64,000 bases of DNA from Minisyncoccota bacterium (GTDB lineage: Bacteria; Patescibacteriota; Minisyncoccia; Phycocordibacterales; Phycocordibacteraceae), in NCBI GenBank assembly GCA_041663025.1, contig JBAZRE010000001.1, positions 71,585 through 135,584 on the forward strand, in the 5' to 3' direction. The notes beneath the pieces are model-generated. The model was not told the origin of the DNA. It ran no database searches and saw nothing but the letters and a program-made list of their open reading frames with translations. How positions within the stretch are numbered: position 1 is the first letter of the stretch; each line of letters starts with the position of its first letter. Made by a program: the position numbers and the translations under genes. Shown here one piece after another: positions 2,651 through 22,961 of this stretch.

Positions 2651-4878
2651 AGATTTTTTGTTTTAAGGCGCAATGAATTAGAGACGACCGAAACACTCGA
2701 GAGCGCCATCGCGAGTCCTGCGAAAACTGGGTTCAAGAGTATCCCGAAGAATGGATACAGCAGGCCACTCGCCACCGGGATGCCGACGATATTATACGCG
2801 AACGCCCAGAATAGATTCTGCTTGATGCCGCGCATCGTGAATTTGGAGAGGCGAATTGCCTTCACCATCTTGCTGATGTCGCCATTCAAGAGTGTGATGC
2901 CTGCACTCTCTATTGCCACATCAGTGCCCGTTGCCATCGCGATGCCCACATCTGCCTGCGCGAGCGCCGGTGCATCATTGATACCATCGCCTGCCATAGC
3001 GACGATGTGACTTTGTGATTGGAGCTCTTTGATTTTGTTCAATTTGTCTTCTGGCATTACCTCAGCGACAATTTCATCTATTCCCGCCTGCTCCGCGATA
3101 TACTGTGCCGTTTGTGCATTATCGCCCGTGAGCATGACAACGCGGATGCCGAGCTTATGGAGATTCGCGACTGCCTCCTTTGCTTCTGGCTTTATCGCGT
3201 CAGCCACCATCGCGACAGCAAGTGTCTTCCCATTCGCAATGAGGATAACCGGTGTCTTCCCCTCAGAGGTGTCTTTATCTAGTGACTCAAAAGATGCTCC
3301 AAGTTCTCTCGCAAGTTTTTCGCTGCCAACGTGATATGTCACACCGCCTATTGCCCCGACAACTCCTTTACCTTTCAGCATTTCAAACCCCTCTACCGGC
3401 ATAAACGGAATATTCTTCTCATGAGCATACGAGACAATCGCGTGAGCTATTGGGTGCTCCGATTTGTTATCAAGTGACGCGAGAATTGAGGTGATATCAG
3501 CATCGCTCTTTTCAGAAAAATTCTTTAGTGACACCAACTCCGGTTTCCCTCTTGTTATCGTACCTGTTTTATCAACTACGACTGTGGTTACTTTGTGCAA
3601 TTTTTCAAGTGTGCTCGCATCCTTGATGAGAATACCTTCTTTTGCACCTTTTCCGACACCGACAATAATCGCGGTTGGCGTTGCGAGCCCTAGCGCGCAA
3701 GGGCATGCAATGACCAGCACTCCGACAAACGAGACGAGCCCGAGCGAGAGCGCCTGTGCGAATCCGAGATATGCCGCCCCAACAAAAATCCAGAGCCCAA
3801 GTGAGGCAAAGGCTATGACGAGCACAATCGGCACAAAGACGCTCGAGATCTTATCCGCAAGCGCCTGGATGGGTGCCTTGCTCCCTTGTGCATCTTCAAC
3901 CATTTGAATGATGTGCGCGAGCAGAGTCTCAGAGCCGACCTTCGTTGCCTTGAAGGTGAACGAACCGGTGGTGTTCAGTGTCCCTGCCACGACCTTATCG
4001 CCAACATTCTTCTCTACCGGCACCGGCTCACCAGAGATCATCGCTTCATCTATATAAGATGATCCCTCGGTGATAACGCCATCCACGGGGATTCTGCCGG
4101 CGGGCTTCACGATGATGAGCTCACCATGCACCACTTGCTCTATGGGGATCTCTATCTCGACACCATCGCGAATCACGAGCGCAGTCTTCGCCTGCAAATT
4201 AAGCAATTTTTCAATTGCATCGCCAGTCTTCAACTTCGCCCTCGCCTCAAGATATTTACCGAGCGAGATAAACGCGATGACGACGATCGCCACATCGAAG
4301 TAGGCGACCTCAACATTCACATACGCGCTCAATTGCTCGGCAAATACCGTGACGGCTGTGCTGTAGAGAAACGCCGCGGAGGTACCGATGCCTATGAGTG
4401 TGTCCATGTTCGCCTTGCCATAGCGCACAAATCGGTAGAAGCCGAGTAAATAGGGCTTGCCAACGAAGAAGAGCGCGTAGGCCGCCATAACTGCCAAGAG
4501 ATAACGGAGGAAACCGCTCACTGCCTCTGGAGCAGCAACCACGCGATTGAATTCTACGAGAATATCCCACGACATGATGAAGATGGCGATGACCGCCATC
4601 GGCATGATGGTGAAGATCTTCGTCTTCATTACAGCGAGCTCGGCAAGTTTCTCGCCCTTAGATTGATTCGTAACAAATGAATAGCCGAGTGGTTCTATAT
4701 TTTTAGAAAGTTGTTGTGAGTTCGTTTTTGTTTCATCAAAAACTACTTTTGCCGATTCATTTCCATAATTCACTTGCACCTCCTCAACTCCAACAACTTT
4801 CTTTAAAGACTTTTCAATGATGTGTGCACAGGAGGCACAATGCATGCCGCGAATCCGATAGGTTTGTGTGGTATTCAT
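2647..4878 (-). CDS. copA: Copper-translocating P1B-type ATPase
   Basis: The product carries an N-terminal HMA motif GMHCASCA, the CPC ion-transduction motif, the DKTGT phosphorylation site and GDGINDAP. Length is 743 aa. Confidence 0.95.
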   Translation of the reverse strand: MNTTQTYRIRGMHCASCAHIIEKSLKKVVGVEEVQVNYGNESAKVVFDETKTNSQQLSKNIEPLGYSFVTNQSKGEKLAELAVMKTKIFTIMPMAVIAIFIMSWDILVEFNRVVAAPEAVSGFLRYLLAVMAAYALFFVGKPYLLGFYRFVRYGKANMDTLIGIGTSAAFLYSTAVTVFAEQLSAYVNVEVAYFDVAIVVIAFISLGKYLEARAKLKTGDAIEKLLNLQAKTALVIRDGVEIEIPIEQVVHGELIIVKPAGRIPVDGVITEGSSYIDEAMISGEPVPVEKNVGDKVVAGTLNTTGSFTFKATKVGSETLLAHIIQMVEDAQGSKAPIQALADKISSVFVPIVLVIAFASLGLWIFVGAAYLGFAQALSLGLVSFVGVLVIACPCALGLATPTAIIVGVGKGAKEGILIKDASTLEKLHKVTTVVVDKTGTITRGKPELVSLKNFSEKSDADITSILASLDNKSEHPIAHAIVSYAHEKNIPFMPVEGFEMLKGKGVVGAIGGVTYHVGSEKLARELGASFESLDKDTSEGKTPVILIANGKTLAVAMVADAIKPEAKEAVANLHKLGIRVVMLTGDNAQTAQYIAEQAGIDEIVAEVMPEDKLNKIKELQSQSHIVAMAGDGINDAPALAQADVGIAMATGTDVAIESAGITLLNGDISKMVKAIRLSKFTMRGIKQNLFWAFAYNIVGIPVASGLLYPFFGILLNPVFAGLAMALSSVSVVSNSLRLKTKNL

Positions 4879-4884
4879 AAAAAA

Positions 4885-5148
4885 TTATTTACGCTTCAGG
4901 CGATATACCTTGAGTATCTCACCTATCGCGGTGCGCTCCTTCCCCTTCTTAATCTGGTGCACCACGCAGGTTCCAAGATGCTGCTCCATGAGAGCATCTT
5001 CAATACCACAGAGTGCCTGCTTCACCGCAGAGGTCTGCGTGATGACATCAATACAATAAGAATCCTTCTCGAGCATCTCCTGCAATCCACGTACCTGCCC
5101 CTCTACGATCTTCAATCGCCGAATCAATTTTGCTTTATTTTGTTTCAT
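4885..5148 (-). CDS. csoR: CsoR/RcnR-family copper-sensing repressor; start set at ATG 5148 rather than the upstream TTG
   Basis: Signature LIRRLKIVEGQVRGLQEML plus a Cys...His...Cys metal site. The ATG at 5148..5146 sits directly behind the -10 element and operator. The TTG-extended ORF would include the operator, so it was rejected. Confidence 0.85.
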   Translation of the reverse strand: MKQNKAKLIRRLKIVEGQVRGLQEMLEKDSYCIDVITQTSAVKQALCGIEDALMEQHLGTCVVHQIKKGKERTAIGEILKVYRLKRK

Positions 5149-5154
5149 CCGCCC

Positions 5155-5184
5155 ATGATACCCCCCAGGGGTATCATCCGTCAA
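5155..5184 (-). promoter_or_regulatory. Putative sigma70-type promoter of the csoR-copA operon (TTGACG-N18-TATCAT); likely leaderless transcript
   Basis: Minus-strand -35 at 5184..5179 and -10 at 5160..5155. The predicted TSS falls at about the A of the csoR ATG (5148). Confidence 0.4.
5157..5175. promoter_or_regulatory. CsoR operator: perfect inverted repeat GATACCCC-cca-GGGGTATC
   Basis: An 8 bp perfect palindrome of the TACCC/GGGTA type, as bound by CsoR-family repressors. It overlaps the -10 element and is immediately upstream of csoR. Confidence 0.6.
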
Positions 5185-5190
5185 GCCGTC

Positions 5191-5218
5191 TACTTGTGAA
5201 CAACAGAAAACCGCCTTC
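5191..5218 (-). terminator. Intrinsic terminator after tRNA-fMet (hairpin CCGCC-agaa-GGCGG followed by a U-run)
   Basis: Plus-strand sequence aaaaccgccttctggcggtttt; on the minus strand the hairpin is followed by UUUUCUGUUG. Confidence 0.5.
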
Positions 5219-5238
5219 TGGCGGTTTTCTGTATTACG

Positions 5239-5523
5239 TGGTTGCGGGGGTCGGAATTGAACCGACGTCTGGAGGTTATGCTTACCACTACAATTTTCAT
5301 TGCCCTTTGGTTTGTGGTCTGGACTATGCCTTCATCCGCCAACTGGTGGATGTCTACCGTCTAGTCTCTACACCTTTTCCGCCGAAAGCGGAACTTGGCT
5401 CGGTGTTGCCTTTTGCTATTCGCAAGAGGGGTTCGCCGAATTTGGCAGATGATCTTATGCGCAATTGCTCGCGCACACGCCCGAATACTCAAGCCTCCCG
5501 AGGTACCTCTCCTCTACCCCGCT
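5239..5523 (-). tRNA. Initiator tRNA-fMet(CAU) interrupted by a 211 nt group I intron in the anticodon loop
   Basis: The 5' exon (5523..5492) and 3' exon (5280..5239, CCA encoded) fold as a canonical cloverleaf. Initiator hallmarks are present: A11:U24, unpaired 1:72, anticodon loop CUCAUAA. The 3' half is nearly identical to E. coli tRNA-fMet. Confidence 0.75.
5281..5491 (-). ncRNA. Group I intron (no ORF) inserted after U33 of tRNA-fMet
   Basis: The intron follows an exon U and ends with G (omega-G). P1 can form from exon GCU plus intron UGA paired with the IGS UCGGGC, giving a splice-site U:G wobble. R/S-like elements GAGACUAG and CAUAGUCC could form P7. Confidence 0.6.
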
Positions 5524-5528
5524 CCTAT

Positions 5529-5557
5529 AGTTTACTCTTCTGTAATGGAATTGGCTA
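5529..5557 (-). promoter_or_regulatory. Possible promoter of tRNA-fMet (TAGCCA-N17-TAAACT)
   Basis: The -10 TAAACT ends 6 nt before tRNA position 1. The -35 overlaps the stop codon of the upstream gene. Confidence 0.3.
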
Positions 5558-6133
5558 GATGGCCTTCAATTCACGGAAAACATTCTCGTAGTGCGCAATG
5601 GTGCGGCGCGCAAGAGTTTCAGAGAGATCAAAGGCGGATCCTTGGTGTGCAATCTGATTGCGCACCTTGTGCGCCTCCCACGCTTCTTGAAGTGTTTTAA
5701 ACTCTGTTGGCTCAACACTCTTCAATTTCTCGCCAACACCGTCACCTACATATCCATTTTTTGTAAGCAGGTCGTCGAGCATGATATCTGCCTCAATGAT
5801 TGCGTCTCGCCACTCGCTTGTAGTCGCACCGTTAATAAGCGACTCGATATGTTGCCAGCGCAGATTTGTTCCACCAATAGCATCAGGCGCGAGAATGACC
5901 GTGCTGTAATACTTTTCTTCACGCGCACGCAATTCGAAGATCCGTATGGTGCAATACACAATAATAAAGAGCCCAATAACTGCGAGCGCGTAACCGATGA
6001 TGACGATCCAGATCCAAAGATGTGCGAGCCACGCTGAGAGTCCAGTTAGTCCTGGCGACCCATAACACGTGCCACGTAGACAATCGTAAAGGAGACGGTA
6101 CCAGAATTCGACATTGAGCTGATTCGCCGGCAT
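5555..6133 (-). CDS. Hypothetical membrane-anchored protein with C-terminal HEPN-like Rx4H motifs (VRNQIAH, RRTIAH)
   Basis: The product has a 32-residue hydrophobic segment (1-2 TM) followed by an alpha-helical C-terminal domain ending in RN-x3-H, as in HepT/Abi HEPN RNases. No partner gene is present. Confidence 0.5.
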   Translation of the reverse strand: MPANQLNVEFWYRLLYDCLRGTCYGSPGLTGLSAWLAHLWIWIVIIGYALAVIGLFIIVYCTIRIFELRAREEKYYSTVILAPDAIGGTNLRWQHIESLINGATTSEWRDAIIEADIMLDDLLTKNGYVGDGVGEKLKSVEPTEFKTLQEAWEAHKVRNQIAHQGSAFDLSETLARRTIAHYENVFRELKAI

Positions 6134-6139
6134 GTGCGT

Positions 6140-7558
6140 TTATTGTAGCGCGGATCCGGCAGTGAAAAGCGAGTTTTCCGCCTGGTGCGGGGCGGTGATG
6201 TGAATGCCAACCGGGAGCTGCTTCCCTTCCCTTTCTACCGTGCCCATCGGGACAGAGATCGCCGGCATGCCAGTAAGATTTGCAGTCACGGTGAAGATAT
6301 CTTCAAGATACATTGAGAGCGGATCATTCTTATCGCCAAACTTGAATGCTGGAGATGGCGTTGTTGGGAAAGCGATGACATCGCATGATTCAAACGCTTT
6401 TTCGTATTCGCGACGCAACACAGCGCGTGCCGTGTCCGCTTTATAGTAATACGCATCAATATAACCAGAAGAGAGCACGAACGTGCCTAGCAAGATACGT
6501 CGACGCGTTTCTTCACCAAAGCCCTCGGTGCGCGAATTAATATAATCATCAAGGAGAGTCTCCCCACGCGCCGCATGCCCGTAGCGCATGCCATCGAGTC
6601 GTGCGAGATTTGTTGAGACTTCTGCAGGCATGATGACGTAGTATGCCGCGAGCGCAGTGGTGCTCATGGGCAGTTTGATCTCTATAATCTCATGCCCTGC
6701 TTGTGTAAGTTTATCGAGCACCGTATCGAATGCGGCGAGCACATCTTTATCAACGCCCTCGCCAAGTAGATGATAAGGAACTCCTATACGAAGGTGTTTG
6801 GAGATTTTATGCACACCATACAATCCATTTGGAATGGTTGTGGAGTCGAGTGCATCTTTACCGCTAATTGCATCATGGATAATGCGCGCATCAGTAATCG
6901 ATTTAGCCAAAGGACCGATTTGATCAAGCGAGGAGCCCATCGCAATAAGTCCATAGCGCGAGACTGCACCATACGTTGGTTTAAGACCAACAATACCGCA
7001 ATGAGCTGCCGGCTGACGTACTGAACCACCCGTATCACTGCCCAGAGCTGCAATACAAAGATGTGCGGCCACTGCAGCGGCAGAGCCTCCCGAAGAGCCG
7101 CCTGGCACACGCGAAATATCATGTGGATTTTTCGTTGGGCCGAAGGCCGAATGTTCGGTTGATGAACCCATCGCAAACTCGTCCATGTTGGTACGACCGA
7201 GAAATAATGCGCCGGCTTCTTTTAATTTTTTAATAACCGTTGCGTCATAGGTCGCGCGATAATTCTCAAGCATCTTAGACGCGGCGCTCGCAATCTTCCC
7301 TTCTATCAGAATGTTGTCTTTAATTGCGAGCGGAATGCCGCAAAGAAGTTGGGCTGATTCGCCTTCAGTATCAATGCGTTTTTGCGCTGATTCAATAGCC
7401 GCATCATCTGCTTCAAAAATTTCAAGATATGCGTGCAGTTCTGGATTCTTCTCGTGCGCGGCAGCCGCGCACGCATCCCAGAGCTCACGTACTGAGCATT
7501 CCCGCGCGCGGAGCGCGCGGGCAGCTTCTACGATCGTCATTTCATTTAATTTAGTCAT
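6140..7558 (-). CDS. gatA: Glu/Asp-tRNA amidotransferase subunit A (amidase signature family)
   Basis: Amidase signature GGSSGGSAAAVAA and a Ser-cisSer-Lys context. The start was set at MTKLNEMTIVEAARAL so that it overlaps the gatC stop by 8 nt. Confidence 0.9.
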   Translation of the reverse strand: MTKLNEMTIVEAARALRARECSVRELWDACAAAAHEKNPELHAYLEIFEADDAAIESAQKRIDTEGESAQLLCGIPLAIKDNILIEGKIASAASKMLENYRATYDATVIKKLKEAGALFLGRTNMDEFAMGSSTEHSAFGPTKNPHDISRVPGGSSGGSAAAVAAHLCIAALGSDTGGSVRQPAAHCGIVGLKPTYGAVSRYGLIAMGSSLDQIGPLAKSITDARIIHDAISGKDALDSTTIPNGLYGVHKISKHLRIGVPYHLLGEGVDKDVLAAFDTVLDKLTQAGHEIIEIKLPMSTTALAAYYVIMPAEVSTNLARLDGMRYGHAARGETLLDDYINSRTEGFGEETRRRILLGTFVLSSGYIDAYYYKADTARAVLRREYEKAFESCDVIAFPTTPSPAFKFGDKNDPLSMYLEDIFTVTANLTGMPAISVPMGTVEREGKQLPVGIHITAPHQAENSLFTAGSALQ

Positions 7559-7844
7559 GCTGGATGATCTGTTTGACCGAGAGTGCGTCGCCTTCGCGCG
7601 AGGGAAACTGCTCAGCAAGCTTCTCAGTGTAGGCATGTGCTTGGTGTGGCTCGCCATCCACACGCATCACATTGCGTAATACAGGAGGCAGGATGCAGGA
7701 TGCAGGATGCAGGTCTAGCGTCTCGAGTTGTCCGATATACGAGAGTATCGCGTCAAATTCGTTCGTGAATTTCTCGAGTTCTGTATCCTCCACTCGTATC
7801 CGCGCGAGCGCTGCGAGCTTTTTAACGTCTTCTGTCGTCGCCAT
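7551..7844 (-). CDS. gatC: Glu/Asp-tRNA amidotransferase subunit C
   Basis: 97 aa, beginning MATTEDVKKLAALARIRVEDTELEKFTNEFDAILSYIGQL, typical of GatC. It is translationally coupled to gatA. Confidence 0.85.
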   Translation of the reverse strand: MATTEDVKKLAALARIRVEDTELEKFTNEFDAILSYIGQLETLDLHPASCILPPVLRNVMRVDGEPHQAHAYTEKLAEQFPSREGDALSVKQIIQHD

Positions 7845-7857
7845 TCTATGCACTTTA

Positions 7858-9876
<2,019 letters not shown>

Positions 9877-9881
9877 TTATT

Positions 9882-10343
9882 TCAGTACACGGAGCTGATA
9901 CCGCGTGATACGAAGCGCGCTCCACCAGGAGTCTCCACCGTGCCACACGGAACATCATATCCTTGTGAGAACATGTAGGTCGTCCCTGAAACATTTTTAT
10001 AGATTGTTATGTCTGCGCAACGAGCACCGTCACCAAGTGACAACCGTGATTTATAAATGACGTTTGACGCATCAGTGCTACTGGCGATTCCAAACTGACT
10101 ACCACCACAGAATAATTCCATCCCTCCACCAGATTTAAAACGATCACTCACATAGTCTTCATAGAGTGCACACTCAATACCGGCATCGGCAGCATAAAAT
10201 GCCTGTTGCGATTCGATAGCCGCAGAGGCGAGCAGTTGCTGTTTATACCCAAGCGAGCTAATCGAGAGACCGAGTGCCAGCATAACTGACATAAAAATGA
10301 CGGAAATCAGAAGTGCAAACCCTCTGTTATGTTTGTTTTTCAT
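9882..10343 (-). CDS. Minor pseudopilin (prepilin-type N-terminus RG|FALLISV, no Glu5)
   Basis: A class III signal-like N-terminus followed by a hydrophobic helix. First gene of a run of four pseudopilin genes. Confidence 0.55.
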   Translation of the reverse strand: MKNKHNRGFALLISVIFMSVMLALGLSISSLGYKQQLLASAAIESQQAFYAADAGIECALYEDYVSDRFKSGGGMELFCGGSQFGIASSTDASNVIYKSRLSLGDGARCADITIYKNVSGTTYMFSQGYDVPCGTVETPGGARFVSRGISSVY

Positions 10344-10939
10344 TGCAATGGCTTGAGATTGTCGGTAATAGTCACTGAATGTGGTCTACTGTGATAACTC
10401 CACGATACTTCTGAAACAATCTTCTCATCGGTTGTAGACATGCCTGTTACTTGAATCGTGCGAATAAAAGGCGTTATTGTATCGATCTGTTGTTGCGTAT
10501 AAATATCCATATCTGAAAGATATAGTGGCTCAGTACACACATCACCAGTACAGCCGGTGAGCTCGCCAGCCAGTGGGTCAAGTGTACATATTTTCGGTGC
10601 TTGGCATAAGGCCACTGATGCTAAAAAGTCGTCCCATGCGCCAGAAGCGTCTCCGCCGTTATACGCAGCAAGATACGCATTGTCGCGTAATAAACGCGCA
10701 TATTCTATACCTTCTTGTGCGAGGTAAGAGGCAATTAGTTGATCGCGGGCGACTCCTGCGGCGACCATTGAACTATTCGCGGCAAAAAAGGATCCGGAGA
10801 TCGCGAGGGTGAGAATGGCTATAGCGACCATAGTTTCAACAAGGGTGAAGCCGCCGTAGTGAGCAGGAGGCAGGAGGCAGGAGGCAGGATTCGAATTCCT
10901 GCTTAGTGCTTGCTGCTTACTGCTTACTGAGTTGCTCAT
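10340..10939 (-). CDS. Pseudopilin with prepilin cleavage/methylation motif GG|FTLVE; unusually long 28 aa leader derived from a dispersed repeat
   Basis: Carries the GFTLVETMVAIAIL N-methylation domain. The first ~24 codons are encoded by the GCAGGAGG palindromic repeat at 10862..10930. Confidence 0.6.
   Translation of the reverse strand: MSNSVSSKQQALSRNSNPASCLLPPAHYGGFTLVETMVAIAILTLAISGSFFAANSSMVAAGVARDQLIASYLAQEGIEYARLLRDNAYLAAYNGGDASGAWDDFLASVALCQAPKICTLDPLAGELTGCTGDVCTEPLYLSDMDIYTQQQIDTITPFIRTIQVTGMSTTDEKIVSEVSWSYHSRPHSVTITDNLKPLQ
10862..10930. repeat. Imperfect palindromic dispersed repeat, copy A (agcaggaggcaggaggcaggaggcagga-ttcgaa-ttcctgcttagtgcttgctgcttactgcttactg), inside the 5' end of a pseudopilin ORF
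   Basis: A G-rich arm and a C/T-rich arm centred on GAATTC; a related tandem 7-mer (cctgcat x3) occurs inside gatC at 7672..7712. Confidence 0.5.
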
Positions 10940-11457
10940 AGGTCAATACCGCGCATGGCGGCTCCAGTTTCAACCGTAAAAGATTGTGGATCCCCGTGAC
11001 CAGAAGAAACTGTGCCGGAAACGGTGATGACCACATATGGTTGAGAACTGTCACCAGTCGACGTACCAGAGACATAAAAAGTCAGAGAAGAAACAGTAAC
11101 CGAGGGATCGGTGAGATTAGCAGAGACGCTACCTTGTGTTTGTGTAATGGAACCTCCAGAGAGCTCATAGGATACTACATTCCCTTTTGAGTTTCTTGTT
11201 GAGAAGCTGTCTCCCCCAGAACAATCGTCCCCAGTTATTGCAGGACAGTGATATTCTGTGCCAGTACGGATCGTGCGCGTCATCGTCTCAAGTGCGAATG
11301 AGAGGCTACCAATTCCGGTTGCAGTGCCTTGGGCCTTTCGTGTGAGATCTATCATTACGATATATGCACCTGAAGCAAGGGTCATCACAAGAGCGAAGAG
11401 TCCGACTGCGATAATAAGTTCAACGAGCGTGTATCCTCTTTTTATTTTCATAGGCAT
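10936..11457 (-). CDS. Pseudopilin (KRG|YTLVELIIAV)
   Basis: Canonical type IV prepilin N-terminus. Confidence 0.65.
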   Translation of the reverse strand: MPMKIKRGYTLVELIIAVGLFALVMTLASGAYIVMIDLTRKAQGTATGIGSLSFALETMTRTIRTGTEYHCPAITGDDCSGGDSFSTRNSKGNVVSYELSGGSITQTQGSVSANLTDPSVTVSSLTFYVSGTSTGDSSQPYVVITVSGTVSSGHGDPQSFTVETGAAMRGIDL

Positions 11458-21724: not shown

Positions 21725-22343
21725 GCTACGTTGGCTCGACTTCCTCTTTCCTCCACGTGTGGATGAAAACGCATTGCGTAACATCTCCCCCGATGAGTTT
21801 CTCACATTCGTCGCTCCGCGACTCGCGCCAGTAACCAGACCAGGCACGGTCGTATTACTTCCCTTCTCTAATCAGCTGGTACGGTCTGCTATTCACGAAG
21901 CCAAGTATCGCGGGAGCGAGCGCGCCTTCACCCTCCTCGCGCTTGCGCTCGCTGAATACCTTCGTGACTTTGATGATGAAAATTACGGACTTCGTAAGTC
22001 CGTAATTATCGTACCGGTGCCATTGGGGAAAGAACGGCGAAAAGAGCGTGGGTTTAATCAATCTGAAGAGATCTCCAGACGCGCGATTAAAGAGCTCAAC
22101 ATAACAATCGATACAACACTTCTTGAACGAACGCGCGAAACAACATCGCAAGTCTCACTCGCTCGAGAGAAACGTGAAAAGAACATGCGCGGCGCGTTCA
22201 AAGCAATTCGCCCAGCTGACACAAATAACACCTACGTGCTCATCGACGACGTCACCACCACCGGCGCCACGCTCCAAGCCGCCATTGATGCTCTCAAAGA
22301 AGCTGGCGCCGAGAACATCATCCCGCTCGCCCTTGCTCATTAA
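21723..22343 (+). CDS. comFC: ComF-family phosphoribosyltransferase-like competence protein
   Basis: PRTase motif VLIDDVTTTGATL. The start was set at internal ATG MLRWLDF, since the upstream part overlaps pilM. Confidence 0.75.
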   Translation: MLRWLDFLFPPRVDENALRNISPDEFLTFVAPRLAPVTRPGTVVLLPFSNQLVRSAIHEAKYRGSERAFTLLALALAEYLRDFDDENYGLRKSVIIVPVPLGKERRKERGFNQSEEISRRAIKELNITIDTTLLERTRETTSQVSLAREKREKNMRGAFKAIRPADTNNTYVLIDDVTTTGATLQAAIDALKEAGAENIIPLALAH

Positions 22344-22346
22344 AAC

Positions 22347-22391
22347 AAGGTGACTCCTTACGGAGTAAAGTGTCACCTTGTTTTGTAAGAT
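22347..22391 (+). terminator. Intrinsic terminator after comFC
   Basis: AAAACAAGGTGAC-loop-GTCACCTTGTTTT, a 10 bp stem flanked by an A-run and a T-run. Confidence 0.6.
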
Positions 22392-22394
22392 GCC

Positions 22395-22423
22395 TTGAGA
22401 AAAAACGAATAATAGAGCAATAT
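22395..22423 (+). promoter_or_regulatory. Putative promoter of tRNA-Ser (TTGAGA-N17-CAATAT)
   Basis: Positioned about 10 nt upstream of tRNA position 1. Confidence 0.35.
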
Positions 22424-22432
22424 GAAAGAAAC

Positions 22433-22521
22433 GGAGGGGTCGCATAGAGGCCTAGTGCGGCGGGTTGCTAACTCGCTATACGAGTAATATCGTATCGAGG
22501 GTTCGAATCCCTCCCCCTCCG
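22433..22521 (+). tRNA. tRNA-Ser(GCU), type II with long variable arm
   Basis: Acceptor GGAGGGG/CCCCTCC; anticodon stem GCGGG/CTCGC with loop TTGCTAA; a 6 bp variable-arm stem; T-arm GAGGG-TTCGAAT-CCCTC; discriminator G. Confidence 0.85.
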
Positions 22522-22524
22522 CAA

Positions 22525-22672
22525 TTTTGAAACGCAGTGAGAAACTGCGGATGGGAAAGCAAAGCGGAGCTTTGCGTGAGGGATTCGAAAGCCGGAGCGC
22601 GACGGCGCGAGGCGGGGTCGCGCAAATTTCTAGCAAGAAATTATGCGTGACCGGATCCCTCCCCCTCCGCAG
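22525..22672 (+). repeat. Degenerate duplicate of the tRNA-Ser 3' half (T-arm plus acceptor) interrupted by about 62 nt; includes a 17 nt exact direct repeat of the tRNA 3' end
   Basis: gagggAttcgaa[~62 nt]tccctccccctccgca compared with the tRNA's gagggttcgaatccctccccctccgca. Positions 22655..22671 are identical to 22506..22522. Confidence 0.45.
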
Positions 22673-22716
22673 CAACAAAAATGCCGATGCGAAAGCATCG
22701 GCATTTTTGTTGCTGA
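22673..22716. terminator. Perfect 19 bp palindrome with GAAA loop (bidirectional terminator-like)
   Basis: gcaacaaaaatgccgatgc-gaaa-gcatcggcatttttgttgc. Confidence 0.6.
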
Positions 22717-22727
22717 CAAAATAGGGA

Positions 22728-22961
22728 TTATTGCATCCCCGGAGCAGAATTGCCCATGCAGCAACTTCTCTTGGTGAATATGACCGCAAGTGCTGAGAGG
22801 CCAACAAGTAGGTAGACGAGATTCTCAACCGCCGGCATCGAGCCGAGAATGAGATTCACGACATTCAAGTTGCTGCCTGTGTAGGTACTGAGCGCGACAA
22901 GACCCCAGTTGAGGCCGCCGATAACAACAAGGACAAACGCTGTTTTATGCAGTGCTTTCAT
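22728..22961 (-). CDS. DUF378-family small membrane protein
   Basis: Carries GGLNWGLVAL, characteristic of DUF378, with two TM helices. Confidence 0.6.
   Translation of the reverse strand: MKALHKTAFVLVVIGGLNWGLVALSTYTGSNLNVVNLILGSMPAVENLVYLLVGLSALAVIFTKRSCCMGNSAPGMQ

Follow-up and report, generated by a model that had tools for sequence, protein, structure and literature searches.

A conserved, uncatalogued family of tRNA-end mimics behind tRNA and tmRNA genes in Paceibacteria-like CPR bacteria

A stretch of 64,000 nucleotides from a Minisyncoccota bacterium (assembly GCA_041663025.1, contig JBAZRE010000001.1, positions 71,585 to 135,584 of the forward strand; hereafter the window) carries a structured element at positions 22545-22672, downstream of a tRNA-Ser(GCU) gene. 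This element belongs to a conserved and uncatalogued family of tRNA-end mimics in Paceibacteria-like bacteria of the candidate phyla radiation (CPR), and more than 70 copies in total (about 50 distinct sequences), all of one architecture, were obtained by pattern scan and covariance model. The architecture, the covariation of the stems, the conserved loops, the strand and position of the units and the match of their arms to the upstream gene are direct observations. We lean towards reading the element as a tRNA-like RNA that would originate from the 3′ trailer of the tRNA and be handled by the tRNA end-processing enzymes; its transcription, its processing and its downstream function we infer.

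The 3′ part of the tRNA, comprising the T-loop, the 3′ strand of the T-stem, the 3′ strand of the acceptor, the discriminator and CA (segment X, 22502-22523, + strand), was found again in the downstream element both directly and as reverse complement, by searches for direct and inverted repeats and by blastn. The sequence ATCCCTCCCCCTCCGCA occurs at 22507-22523 and at 22655-22671, the latter being the sole other match of that length in the window (blastn-short, E 4.5e-4), and as a 20-mer the two copies show one mismatch. The preliminary description of this DNA had rightly stated that 17 nt of the tRNA 3′ end recur downstream, but the start-to-start spacing is 148 and not 149. These direct repeats enclose 131 nt. 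The sequence GAGGGATTCGAA at 22578-22589 is the exact reverse complement of TTCGAATCCCTC at 22502-22513 in the tRNA, and 65 nt (22590-22654) separate it from the second ATCCCTC; extra sequence where a T-loop should be had been recognised before, although its length was given as about 62 nt. The preliminary description was also right in tracing the element to the 3′ end of the tRNA beside it.

The 128 nt at 22545-22672 form a compact multi-branch fold of -73.7 kcal/mol, compared to -48.9 ± 3.8 kcal/mol for shuffled sequences (z -6.5), a strong fold that the preliminary description had not noted. All its parts are read from the + strand. The acceptor-like 5′ strand of the first helix, P1 (GGATGGG, 22549-22555; folds and family table), likewise not noted before, finds its partner in the second copy of CCCCTCC (22662-22668), in the same register as in the acceptor of the tRNA, with six of seven pairs formed and one U·C mismatch. 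P2 is the hairpin GCAAAGC-GGA-GCTTTGC at 22559-22575 (folds and P2 covariation in the family), followed by GT at 22576-22577, and is positioned where the body of a tRNA would branch off the acceptor/T stack; it has 7 bp in the window, whereas most family members have 9 bp and a 4-nt loop. The 5′ strand of P3, GAGGGATTC(GAA) at 22578-22589, corresponds in reverse complement to the tRNA's T-loop and the 3′ strand of its T-stem (inverted repeats and folds). The P4 hairpin GCC-GGA-GCGC-GACG-GCGC-GA-GGC at 22591-22613, recovered by folds, by RNAalifold on 21 type-A members and by motif counts, has retained the type-A internal loop (5′ GGA / 3′ GA) and has a shorter tip than in relatives. P5 is a long hairpin, GGTCGCGCAAATTTCT-AGCA-AGAAATTATGCGTGACC, at 22616-22652 (folds and partial covariation in type-A members). 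The unit is completed at 22653-22671 by a direct copy of segment X, namely the 3′ strand of P3 (GGATCCCTC), the 3′ strand of P1 (CCCCTCC), the discriminator G and CA (repeat search, blastn, folds and family table). In the folds the P1 stem is contiguous on its 3′ strand with GGATCCCTC and the G comes next, as in an acceptor/T minihelix. The covariance model R1 placed the whole element at 22542-22671 on the + strand with 70.8 bits (E 8e-17), its sole match in the window. Two further assemblies of this organism contain an identical element.

Members of the family were collected with the search pattern GTGAGGGATTCGAA-N60-90-ATCCCTCC over metagenomes, which gave 68 loci and, once four false positives had been removed, about 50 distinct sequences. 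A first DNA pattern without the leading GT had matched only ordinary tRNA-Ser genes, read on the opposite strand, in viral contigs. The sole viral match after the GT was added, locus L093, is not a member; it is an integrase-adjacent tRNA fragment of a high-GC phage and reaches 27 bits with R1. The members other than the window copy score 35-121 bits; in controls totalling 524 kb, among them over 100 phage tRNAs, no score exceeded 27 bits. The taxonomic reach seen is that of Paceibacteria-type CPR bacteria. The ComF of the window is identical to a protein annotated in a Candidatus Paceibacterota metagenome-assembled genome, which places its host in the CPR (Patescibacteria), and the ComF of L122 has its nearest named relatives in Paceibacterota and Nomurabacteria at about 40% identity. 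None of the 4227 families of Rfam 15 matched the element in the window or in 15 element-bearing loci, where only tRNA and one genuine transfer-messenger RNA (tmRNA) reached the gathering score, and at E values up to 10 the region 22400-22760 gave only chance-level matches on the element. The identities tmRNA, Y RNA and other Rfam family were ruled out, there being no match at gathering score. Literature searches turned up no description of such an element; the closest paper treats the group I introns that Patescibacteria carry within their tRNA genes and concerns anticodon-loop introns only.

The minimum-free-energy folds of the approximately 50 sequences agree on a P1 of 7 bp, a single A, a P2 hairpin of 9 bp with a 4-nt loop, GU, P3 and P4/P5. 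P1 forms mostly 6-7 of its seven pairs, and the discriminator is the same as that of the tRNA. P3 has 9-12 bp, GAGGGAUUC(GAA) with (UUC)GAAUCCCUC, continues from P1 as in a tRNA minihelix and opens into a three-way junction with P4 and P5, which stand in the place of the T-loop; the P1 3′ strand and the discriminator close the unit. In type A, to which the window copy belongs, the base of P4 is CC-GGA-GCG...GCG-GA-GG and the tips are GCGACGGC-like, and types B1-B3 have long AU-rich P4 hairpins, a GUAC junction and a P5 of 5-6 bp with a GUA-centred loop. When 50 sequences were aligned with MAFFT, each of the nine P2 pairs proved to vary on both sides, and the covariation score of P2 was 0.346 against 0.130 for shuffles (reached by 0 of 500) and at most 0.123 for slid partners; 31 distinct P2 strands occur among 34 canonical members. 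RNAalifold on the 21 type-A members, including that of the window, recovered P2, P3, P4 and part of P5, with compensatory changes in 25 of 34 pairs. Conservation is also high in the unpaired positions, with the A after P1 present in 33 of 34 members, the P2 loop CUGC in 25 of 34 and the GUA-centred loop of the type-B P5 in 27 of 27, and within type A the P4 internal loop CGGAGCG...GAG is found in 18-20 of 21 and the GCGACGGC tip in 14 of 21. These conserved unpaired nucleotides argue for a strand-specific function. Two further ideas on the loops were dropped. One was that the P2 loop imitates an anticodon, to which CUGC in units behind Ser(GCU) and CUUC behind Glu(UUC) had pointed; the Tyr and tmRNA units, however, have CUGC as well. 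The other, a P2-P4 kissing-loop, was inconsistent across types.

The gene comF followed by tRNA-Ser(GCU) is a conserved arrangement, and two of eight such loci of close relatives contain the element, the window and L087. A profile scan of genome contigs with the ComF alignment used patterns that were too general, and two close relatives were among the matches listed. The ComF of L087 is 76-77% identical to that of the window, and its element has the same spacer hairpin block (24 of 25 nt) and the same GTGAGGGATTCGAA and ATCCCTCCCCCTCCGC. Its P2 strands, CAAGTCGC/GCGACTTG, are in contrast wholly different from the GCAAAGC/GCTTTGC of the window and fully compensated, and its inner hairpins also differ, the overall fold being the same (z -7.4).

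The preliminary description had taken the sequence for a decayed att site, the remnant of an integrative element or a disrupted tRNA copy. A decaying relic of this kind, being either a displaced attR copy left by a deleted integrated element or a broken second tRNA-Ser gene, is now very improbable. Integration does leave a direct repeat of the tRNA 3′ end, mobile-element genes do occur at the same tRNA-Ser in relatives, and the window copy is a weaker member of the family: its score is 70.8 bits, P1 has one mismatch and both P2 and P4 are shorter than usual. The more than 70 copies from unrelated samples nevertheless keep a five-helix architecture while their stem sequences differ, with covarying stems and conserved loops in some 50 distinct sequences, and relics do not covary; a conserved structured element in relatives, named beforehand as the finding that would overturn the relic view, is what L087, with its compensated P2, and the other loci display. 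Moreover, integration does not give rise to an inverted copy of the tRNA end or to the 5′ strand of an acceptor, and both are present; remnants of a D-arm or anticodon arm are lacking, and the tRNA model gave no match on 22545-22672 even at E up to 10. The integrase remnants suggested for the vicinity were searched for by tblastn in the window and none was found. The element was ruled out as a tRNA (RF00005), a single hairpin of 7-9 bp replacing the D- and anticodon arms and a three-way junction replacing the T-loop, and likewise as an attL/attR remnant, the repeats bracketing conserved structured sequence between comF and the DUF378 gene with no integrase.

Units were found 3′ of tRNA-Ser (GCU, CGA and GGA), tRNA-Tyr(GUA) and tRNA-Arg(UCG), starting 30-75 nt after the gene, and R1 added units 3′ of tRNA-Glu(UUC) and 3′ of a tmRNA gene. 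Wherever an upstream gene could be detected, the unit shares its strand, and in each case the 5′ strands of P1 and P3 are the complement of the gene's own 3′ end. The arms are for example GGAGAGG/CCUCUCC after Ser, GCUCCCG/CGGGAGC after Arg, GACCUUA with CGGGGAAUCGAA after Glu and GGAGAUG with GCGGGAAUCGAA after tmRNA. The 3′ acceptor strand and discriminator are identical to those of the tRNA in most loci and have drifted in a few; in one of these, L106, the acceptor of the element departs from that of the tRNA and shows a compensating change (GAAGAGG/CCUCUUU). A rule by which the 5′ arm would always be the perfect complement of the 3′ arm and never a copy of the tRNA 5′ strand was dropped, as there are cases both ways and the search pattern fixed GAGGG. 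Unlike the arms, the P2/P4/P5 types are common to units after different genes: a tmRNA unit and a tRNA-Ser unit on the one contig of L171 have almost the same P4, and a genuine tmRNA lies directly upstream of one unit. Some contigs hold two or three units, always after tRNA or tmRNA genes or the ends of genomic islands (see below). Three identical units of 155 nt stand in tandem in L150, and more than one unit was also seen in L144, L109, L170, L119, L146 and L130. The window has one copy, and a repeat dispersed within it was ruled out, no other copy being present.

At a low probability, the units could be re-programmable tRNA-end modules with a shared P2/P4/P5 core, the arms of which are re-templated from whichever tRNA or tmRNA gene the unit lands behind. 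If true, this would imply a dedicated copying or guiding mechanism, be it an unrecognised recombinase, a reverse transcriptase or a template-switch system, or as an alternative candidate an RNA or single-stranded DNA guide sending restriction-modification islands to tRNA 3′ ends, and CPR bacteria would then possess a mobile or guide element of a new kind, one matched to its target.

If the element acts as a tRNA-like RNA, the unit would be transcribed within the 3′ trailer of the tRNA and fold independently into a tRNA-like minihelix. RNase P would then be expected to cut on its 5′ side, and RNase Z or exonucleases together with the CCA-adding enzyme to act on its 3′ side. The product would be a stable RNA of about 125 nt displaying the acceptor/T surface of the partner tRNA and no anticodon, and for factors reading this surface it may be a partner, a competitor or a decoy, with P2/P4/P5 as a possible protein-binding module. 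We favour this reading because of the co-orientation of the units with the upstream gene and the tRNA-like topology, in which the side hairpin stands exactly at the acceptor/T junction, and because strand-specific loops and an asymmetric internal loop are conserved, most units have ordinary genes around them and no recombinase is associated with them. About 80% of the units lie between a tRNA and ordinary genes, and the downstream neighbours in other loci are, as judged by eye, ordinary genes such as those for ClpB, the CCA-adding enzyme and ComF. Counts over the whole element weakly favour the + strand, with 58 G-U against 14 A-C pairs and the + strand being the more stable in 41 of 51 sequences.

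Several observations weigh against an RNA or are neutral. P1 and P2 are almost purely Watson-Crick, with 295 Watson-Crick, 6 G-U and 4 A-C pairs in P2 and 12 G-U versus 16 A-C pairs in P1; as G-U and A-C are about equally frequent, the pair types do not prefer the RNA strand. The first one or two base pairs of P1 are often mismatched, and two low-scoring copies, those after tRNA-Glu and tmRNA, have no 3′ acceptor strand. The conservation of P3 is partly an ascertainment effect because the search pattern fixed its sequence. The patchy distribution (two of eight ComF-linked loci), the identical tandem copies and the islands between duplicated units are also typical of mobile or selfish DNA. Finally, in roughly half of the loci the spacer between gene and unit looks like an intrinsic terminator with a U-run, and the element would there be made only by read-through.

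The spacers are also relevant to the view that the units are a selfish or neutral palindromic repeat without function, generated by template-switching at the tRNA terminator and T-arm hairpins and having its arms kept matched by quasipalindrome correction. Fold-back copying would yield first an inverted and then a direct copy of the tRNA end, and many spacers are perfect palindromes with a stem that runs on into the tRNA acceptor 3′ strand and the element 5′ strand. The near-perfect Watson-Crick stems, the identical tandem units and the arms that track the neighbouring gene even where the inner hairpins are nearly identical within a contig (the shared P4 of L171) point in the same direction. 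This explanation leaves unaccounted for the conserved modules, namely the fixed-length P2, the GU linker and the P4/P5 types, which recur across samples and behind different tRNAs; a single origin with long-term conservation speaks for selection on something, and we regard a functionless repeat as quite unlikely. A second class of spacers, in L110, L149, L115, L150, L105 and L170, carries the motifs GCGAAGC, GCGTAGC, GCAAAGC or ACGAAGT, which resemble the very stable GNA-triloop mini-hairpins of single-stranded DNA.

A connection to mobile DNA was found in loci where units flank islands. In L159 an island of 4510 bp (6830-11340) lies between two units of 172 nt that differ at two positions, and the repeat ends exactly at ...CTCCGC; the island encodes a C5 methylase, a LexA-like protein, DUF2130 and an HTH_17 open reading frame (ORF). 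A second restriction-modification island, on contig JACKQG010001463 (L168:3290-7979 with L113:1-213), encodes DpnII and two methylases and has inverted ends of about 95 nt. Both islands are flanked by near-identical copies of spacer and element, and units in L111, L112, L165 and L155 come after the same island end (...ACACACCGC). No recognisable recombinase or integrase was found in the islands, searches with PHROGs and NCBIfam giving nothing beyond an excisionase-type helix-turn-helix protein, and when a tyrosine integrase fragment, XerD and a large serine recombinase served as tblastn queries, the window gave no tyrosine or large serine recombinase homologue. Across 537 kb of element-bearing loci a single XerD-like gene was seen, at a distance of 5 kb from the element. 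The unit has no complementarity or match of at least 8 nt to the ends of the L159 island, and on this ground, and for the lack of a recombinase gene beside units, an IS110-type bridge or seek RNA was ruled out.

The main alternative, in our estimate less likely, is that the unit is a DNA-level site, that is an attachment or recombination module, folded single-stranded or duplex, comparable to integron attC sites or to the attP region of islands that integrate at tRNA genes. It would be carried or used by islands that target the 3′ ends of tRNA and tmRNA genes, solitary units then being landing pads or footprints. Units are confined to these 3′ ends, where islands classically integrate, and the repeat is exactly the segment used by integrases, from the T-loop to the 3′ end. 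The islands of L159 and JACKQG010001463 between duplicated units, the island end before units in four further loci, the identical tandem units and the patchy presence among close relatives are all consistent with it, and nearly pure Watson-Crick stems with G-U about as frequent as A-C would be expected if the arms were kept matched at the DNA level. Relatives also bear recombinases at the same tRNA-Ser. In L004 a 131-aa C-terminal fragment of a tyrosine integrase (...HTLRHTFASHL...LLGHS...; − strand, 3280-3680) lies directly 3′ of tRNA-Ser(GCU), and in L083 a large serine recombinase gene, identified by eye (4903-6400, − strand), is situated within inverted repeats of 42 nt immediately 3′ of tRNA-Ser. 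The association with mobile DNA drawn in the preliminary description holds at the level of the clade, where tRNA-Ser 3′ ends are hot spots for an integrase fragment, a serine recombinase and homing-endonuclease ORFs, and restriction-modification islands stand beside related units. On the other side, a DNA site is disfavoured by the absence of a recombinase homologue from the window, the one XerD-like gene in 537 kb and islands devoid of a recognisable recombinase, by the roughly 80% of units that adjoin ordinary genes and by the lack of complementarity of at least 8 nt to the island ends. Conserved asymmetric loops and junctions and a P2 of fixed length are unexpected for duplex att sites, and an inverted copy whose hairpin stands right at the acceptor/T junction is not known from attP or attB sites.

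For the tRNA-like RNA, the arrangement of the window itself is informative. The tRNA-Ser(GCU) gene, of class II with a long variable arm, was located at 22433-22522 on the + strand by ARAGORN and by Rfam (RF00005, 51.3 bits, end at 22522/22521), and both agree that it is the single tRNA of the window. Its T-arm is GAGGG/TTCGAAT/CCCTC, its acceptor GGAGGGG/CCCCTCC and its discriminator the G at 22521, with CCA incompletely encoded. A spacer hairpin, CGCAGT-GAGAA-ACTGCG, is found between tRNA and element at 22533-22549 (+ strand; sequence, L087 alignment and spacer table); it is without a U-run, its surrounding block is 24/25 identical in L087, and the hairpin is also present in L132. A sequence scan from tRNA to element revealed no promoter-like or terminator-like site. 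Immediately beyond the element, an inverted-repeat search identified a palindrome on both strands with arms of 21 nt (22670-22690 and 22695-22715), 100% complementary around a GAAA loop and 46 nt in all; it had been described correctly as perfect and GAAA-looped but as having 19 bp and 42 nt. Its core, GCCGATGC-GAAA-GCATCGGC, is a GC-rich stem of 8 bp followed on both strands by ATTTTTGTT. Like a Rho-independent terminator, it combines a GC-rich 8-bp core, a 4-nt loop and a T-run on both strands between convergent units; it differs in that its A-run pairs with the T-run, which extends the stem to 21 bp, and because of this pairing the consensus terminator scanner did not list it. From its sequence, we read the palindrome as a bidirectional intrinsic terminator shared by the tRNA and element (+ strand) and the convergent DUF378 gene (− strand). 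With a strong shared terminator after the element and none in the spacer, tRNA and element would form one transcription unit in the window.

On the 5′ side of tRNA-Ser stands a gene for a ComF-type phosphoribosyltransferase, with type IV pilus genes further upstream, and on the 3′ side of the element the convergent DUF378 gene (22728-22961, − strand; Pfam) is followed by genes for a histidine phosphatase and GroEL. An inverted repeat of 20 nt, 90% complementary with a 3-nt loop, at 22342-22384 begins at the comF stop codon and precedes the tRNA-Ser promoter region; it is probably the terminator of comF. In relatives, ORFs of the LAGLIDADG or GIY-YIG type occur at tRNA-Ser in L003, L083, L087 and L089, and nothing is inserted in L086 and L088. 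One of them, an ORF of 333 aa with a weak LAGLIDADG_3 match that looks like a free-standing homing endonuclease, occupies the gap from comF to tRNA-Ser in L083 (3717-4718), L087 (3747-4748) and L003 (3140-4100) and is not present in the window. The region 3150-3661 of L089 holds a GIY-YIG ORF (3240-3494) between two partial tRNA-Ser 5′ halves, each with an insert of 22 nt, CCACCCCGCTAAGCGGGGCAAG, and after these an intact tRNA-Ser(GCU) at 3572-3661. L086, a close relative without the element, has a reverse transcriptase (RVT_1) and a bAvd gene at 1-845, about 2.5 kb from comF, which are likely to be a diversity-generating retroelement. Directly after the tRNA-Arg unit of L107, a − strand ORF of 490 aa (1660-190) has by eye the look of the CCA-adding enzyme/poly(A) polymerase family; this may be a coincidence.

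The CPR or Patescibacteria have tiny genomes and very little characterised non-coding RNA. If the units are RNAs, they would represent a new class among the few bacterial tRNA mimics and hint at a partner that reads tRNA ends, for instance a processing enzyme, a toxin or a synthetase-like factor. If they are DNA sites, they would show by what route small restriction-modification islands that lack a recognisable integrase home in on tRNA genes in these organisms. Annotation and island-finding pipelines will miscall the units as tRNA fragments or att scars.

Small stable tRNA-like RNAs are known from phage T4, whose species 1 and 2 RNAs are encoded by rnaC and rnaD, and from eukaryotes, where mascRNA is formed at the 3′ end of MALAT1; their paired ends mimic the acceptor/T minihelix, so that RNase P and RNase Z release them and the CCA-adding enzyme caps them. 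The element resembles these RNAs in being a non-tRNA beside or behind a tRNA-type gene, with acceptor/T-like ends and no anticodon function, and it may be processed in a similar manner. It differs from them in that it reproduces exactly the acceptor and T-stem of the gene upstream of it, has a three-way junction for the T-loop and a fixed side hairpin of 9 bp, and occurs after many tRNAs and tmRNA, sometimes in tandem. The tRNA-like domains of tmRNA and of the Y RNA YrlA share with it an acceptor stem on a T-arm-like helix and other helices in place of the anticodon arm, whereas the element has no T-loop, D-loop analogue, ORF or Ro-binding stem, is about 125 nt long and matches no Rfam family.

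Among DNA elements, the attL and attR sites of tRNA-integrating islands are similar in their direct repeat from the T-loop to the 3′ end, in their tRNA and tmRNA hosts and in the islands beside some units; the repeats in the window are, however, 148 nt apart and enclose a covarying structure and not an island, an inverted copy is present as well, and there is no integrase. Integron attC sites and the repetitive extragenic palindromic (REP) sequences and bacterial interspersed mosaic elements (BIME) are imperfect palindromes, 60-150 nt long, whose working form is the folded single strand; they stand alone or in arrays, and cassettes can lie between them. The units are likewise palindromic, single or in arrays, and some flank islands, but no IntI or RAYT-type gene was seen in their flanks, the window has one copy, and their arms are copied from the adjacent tRNA instead of following a fixed consensus.

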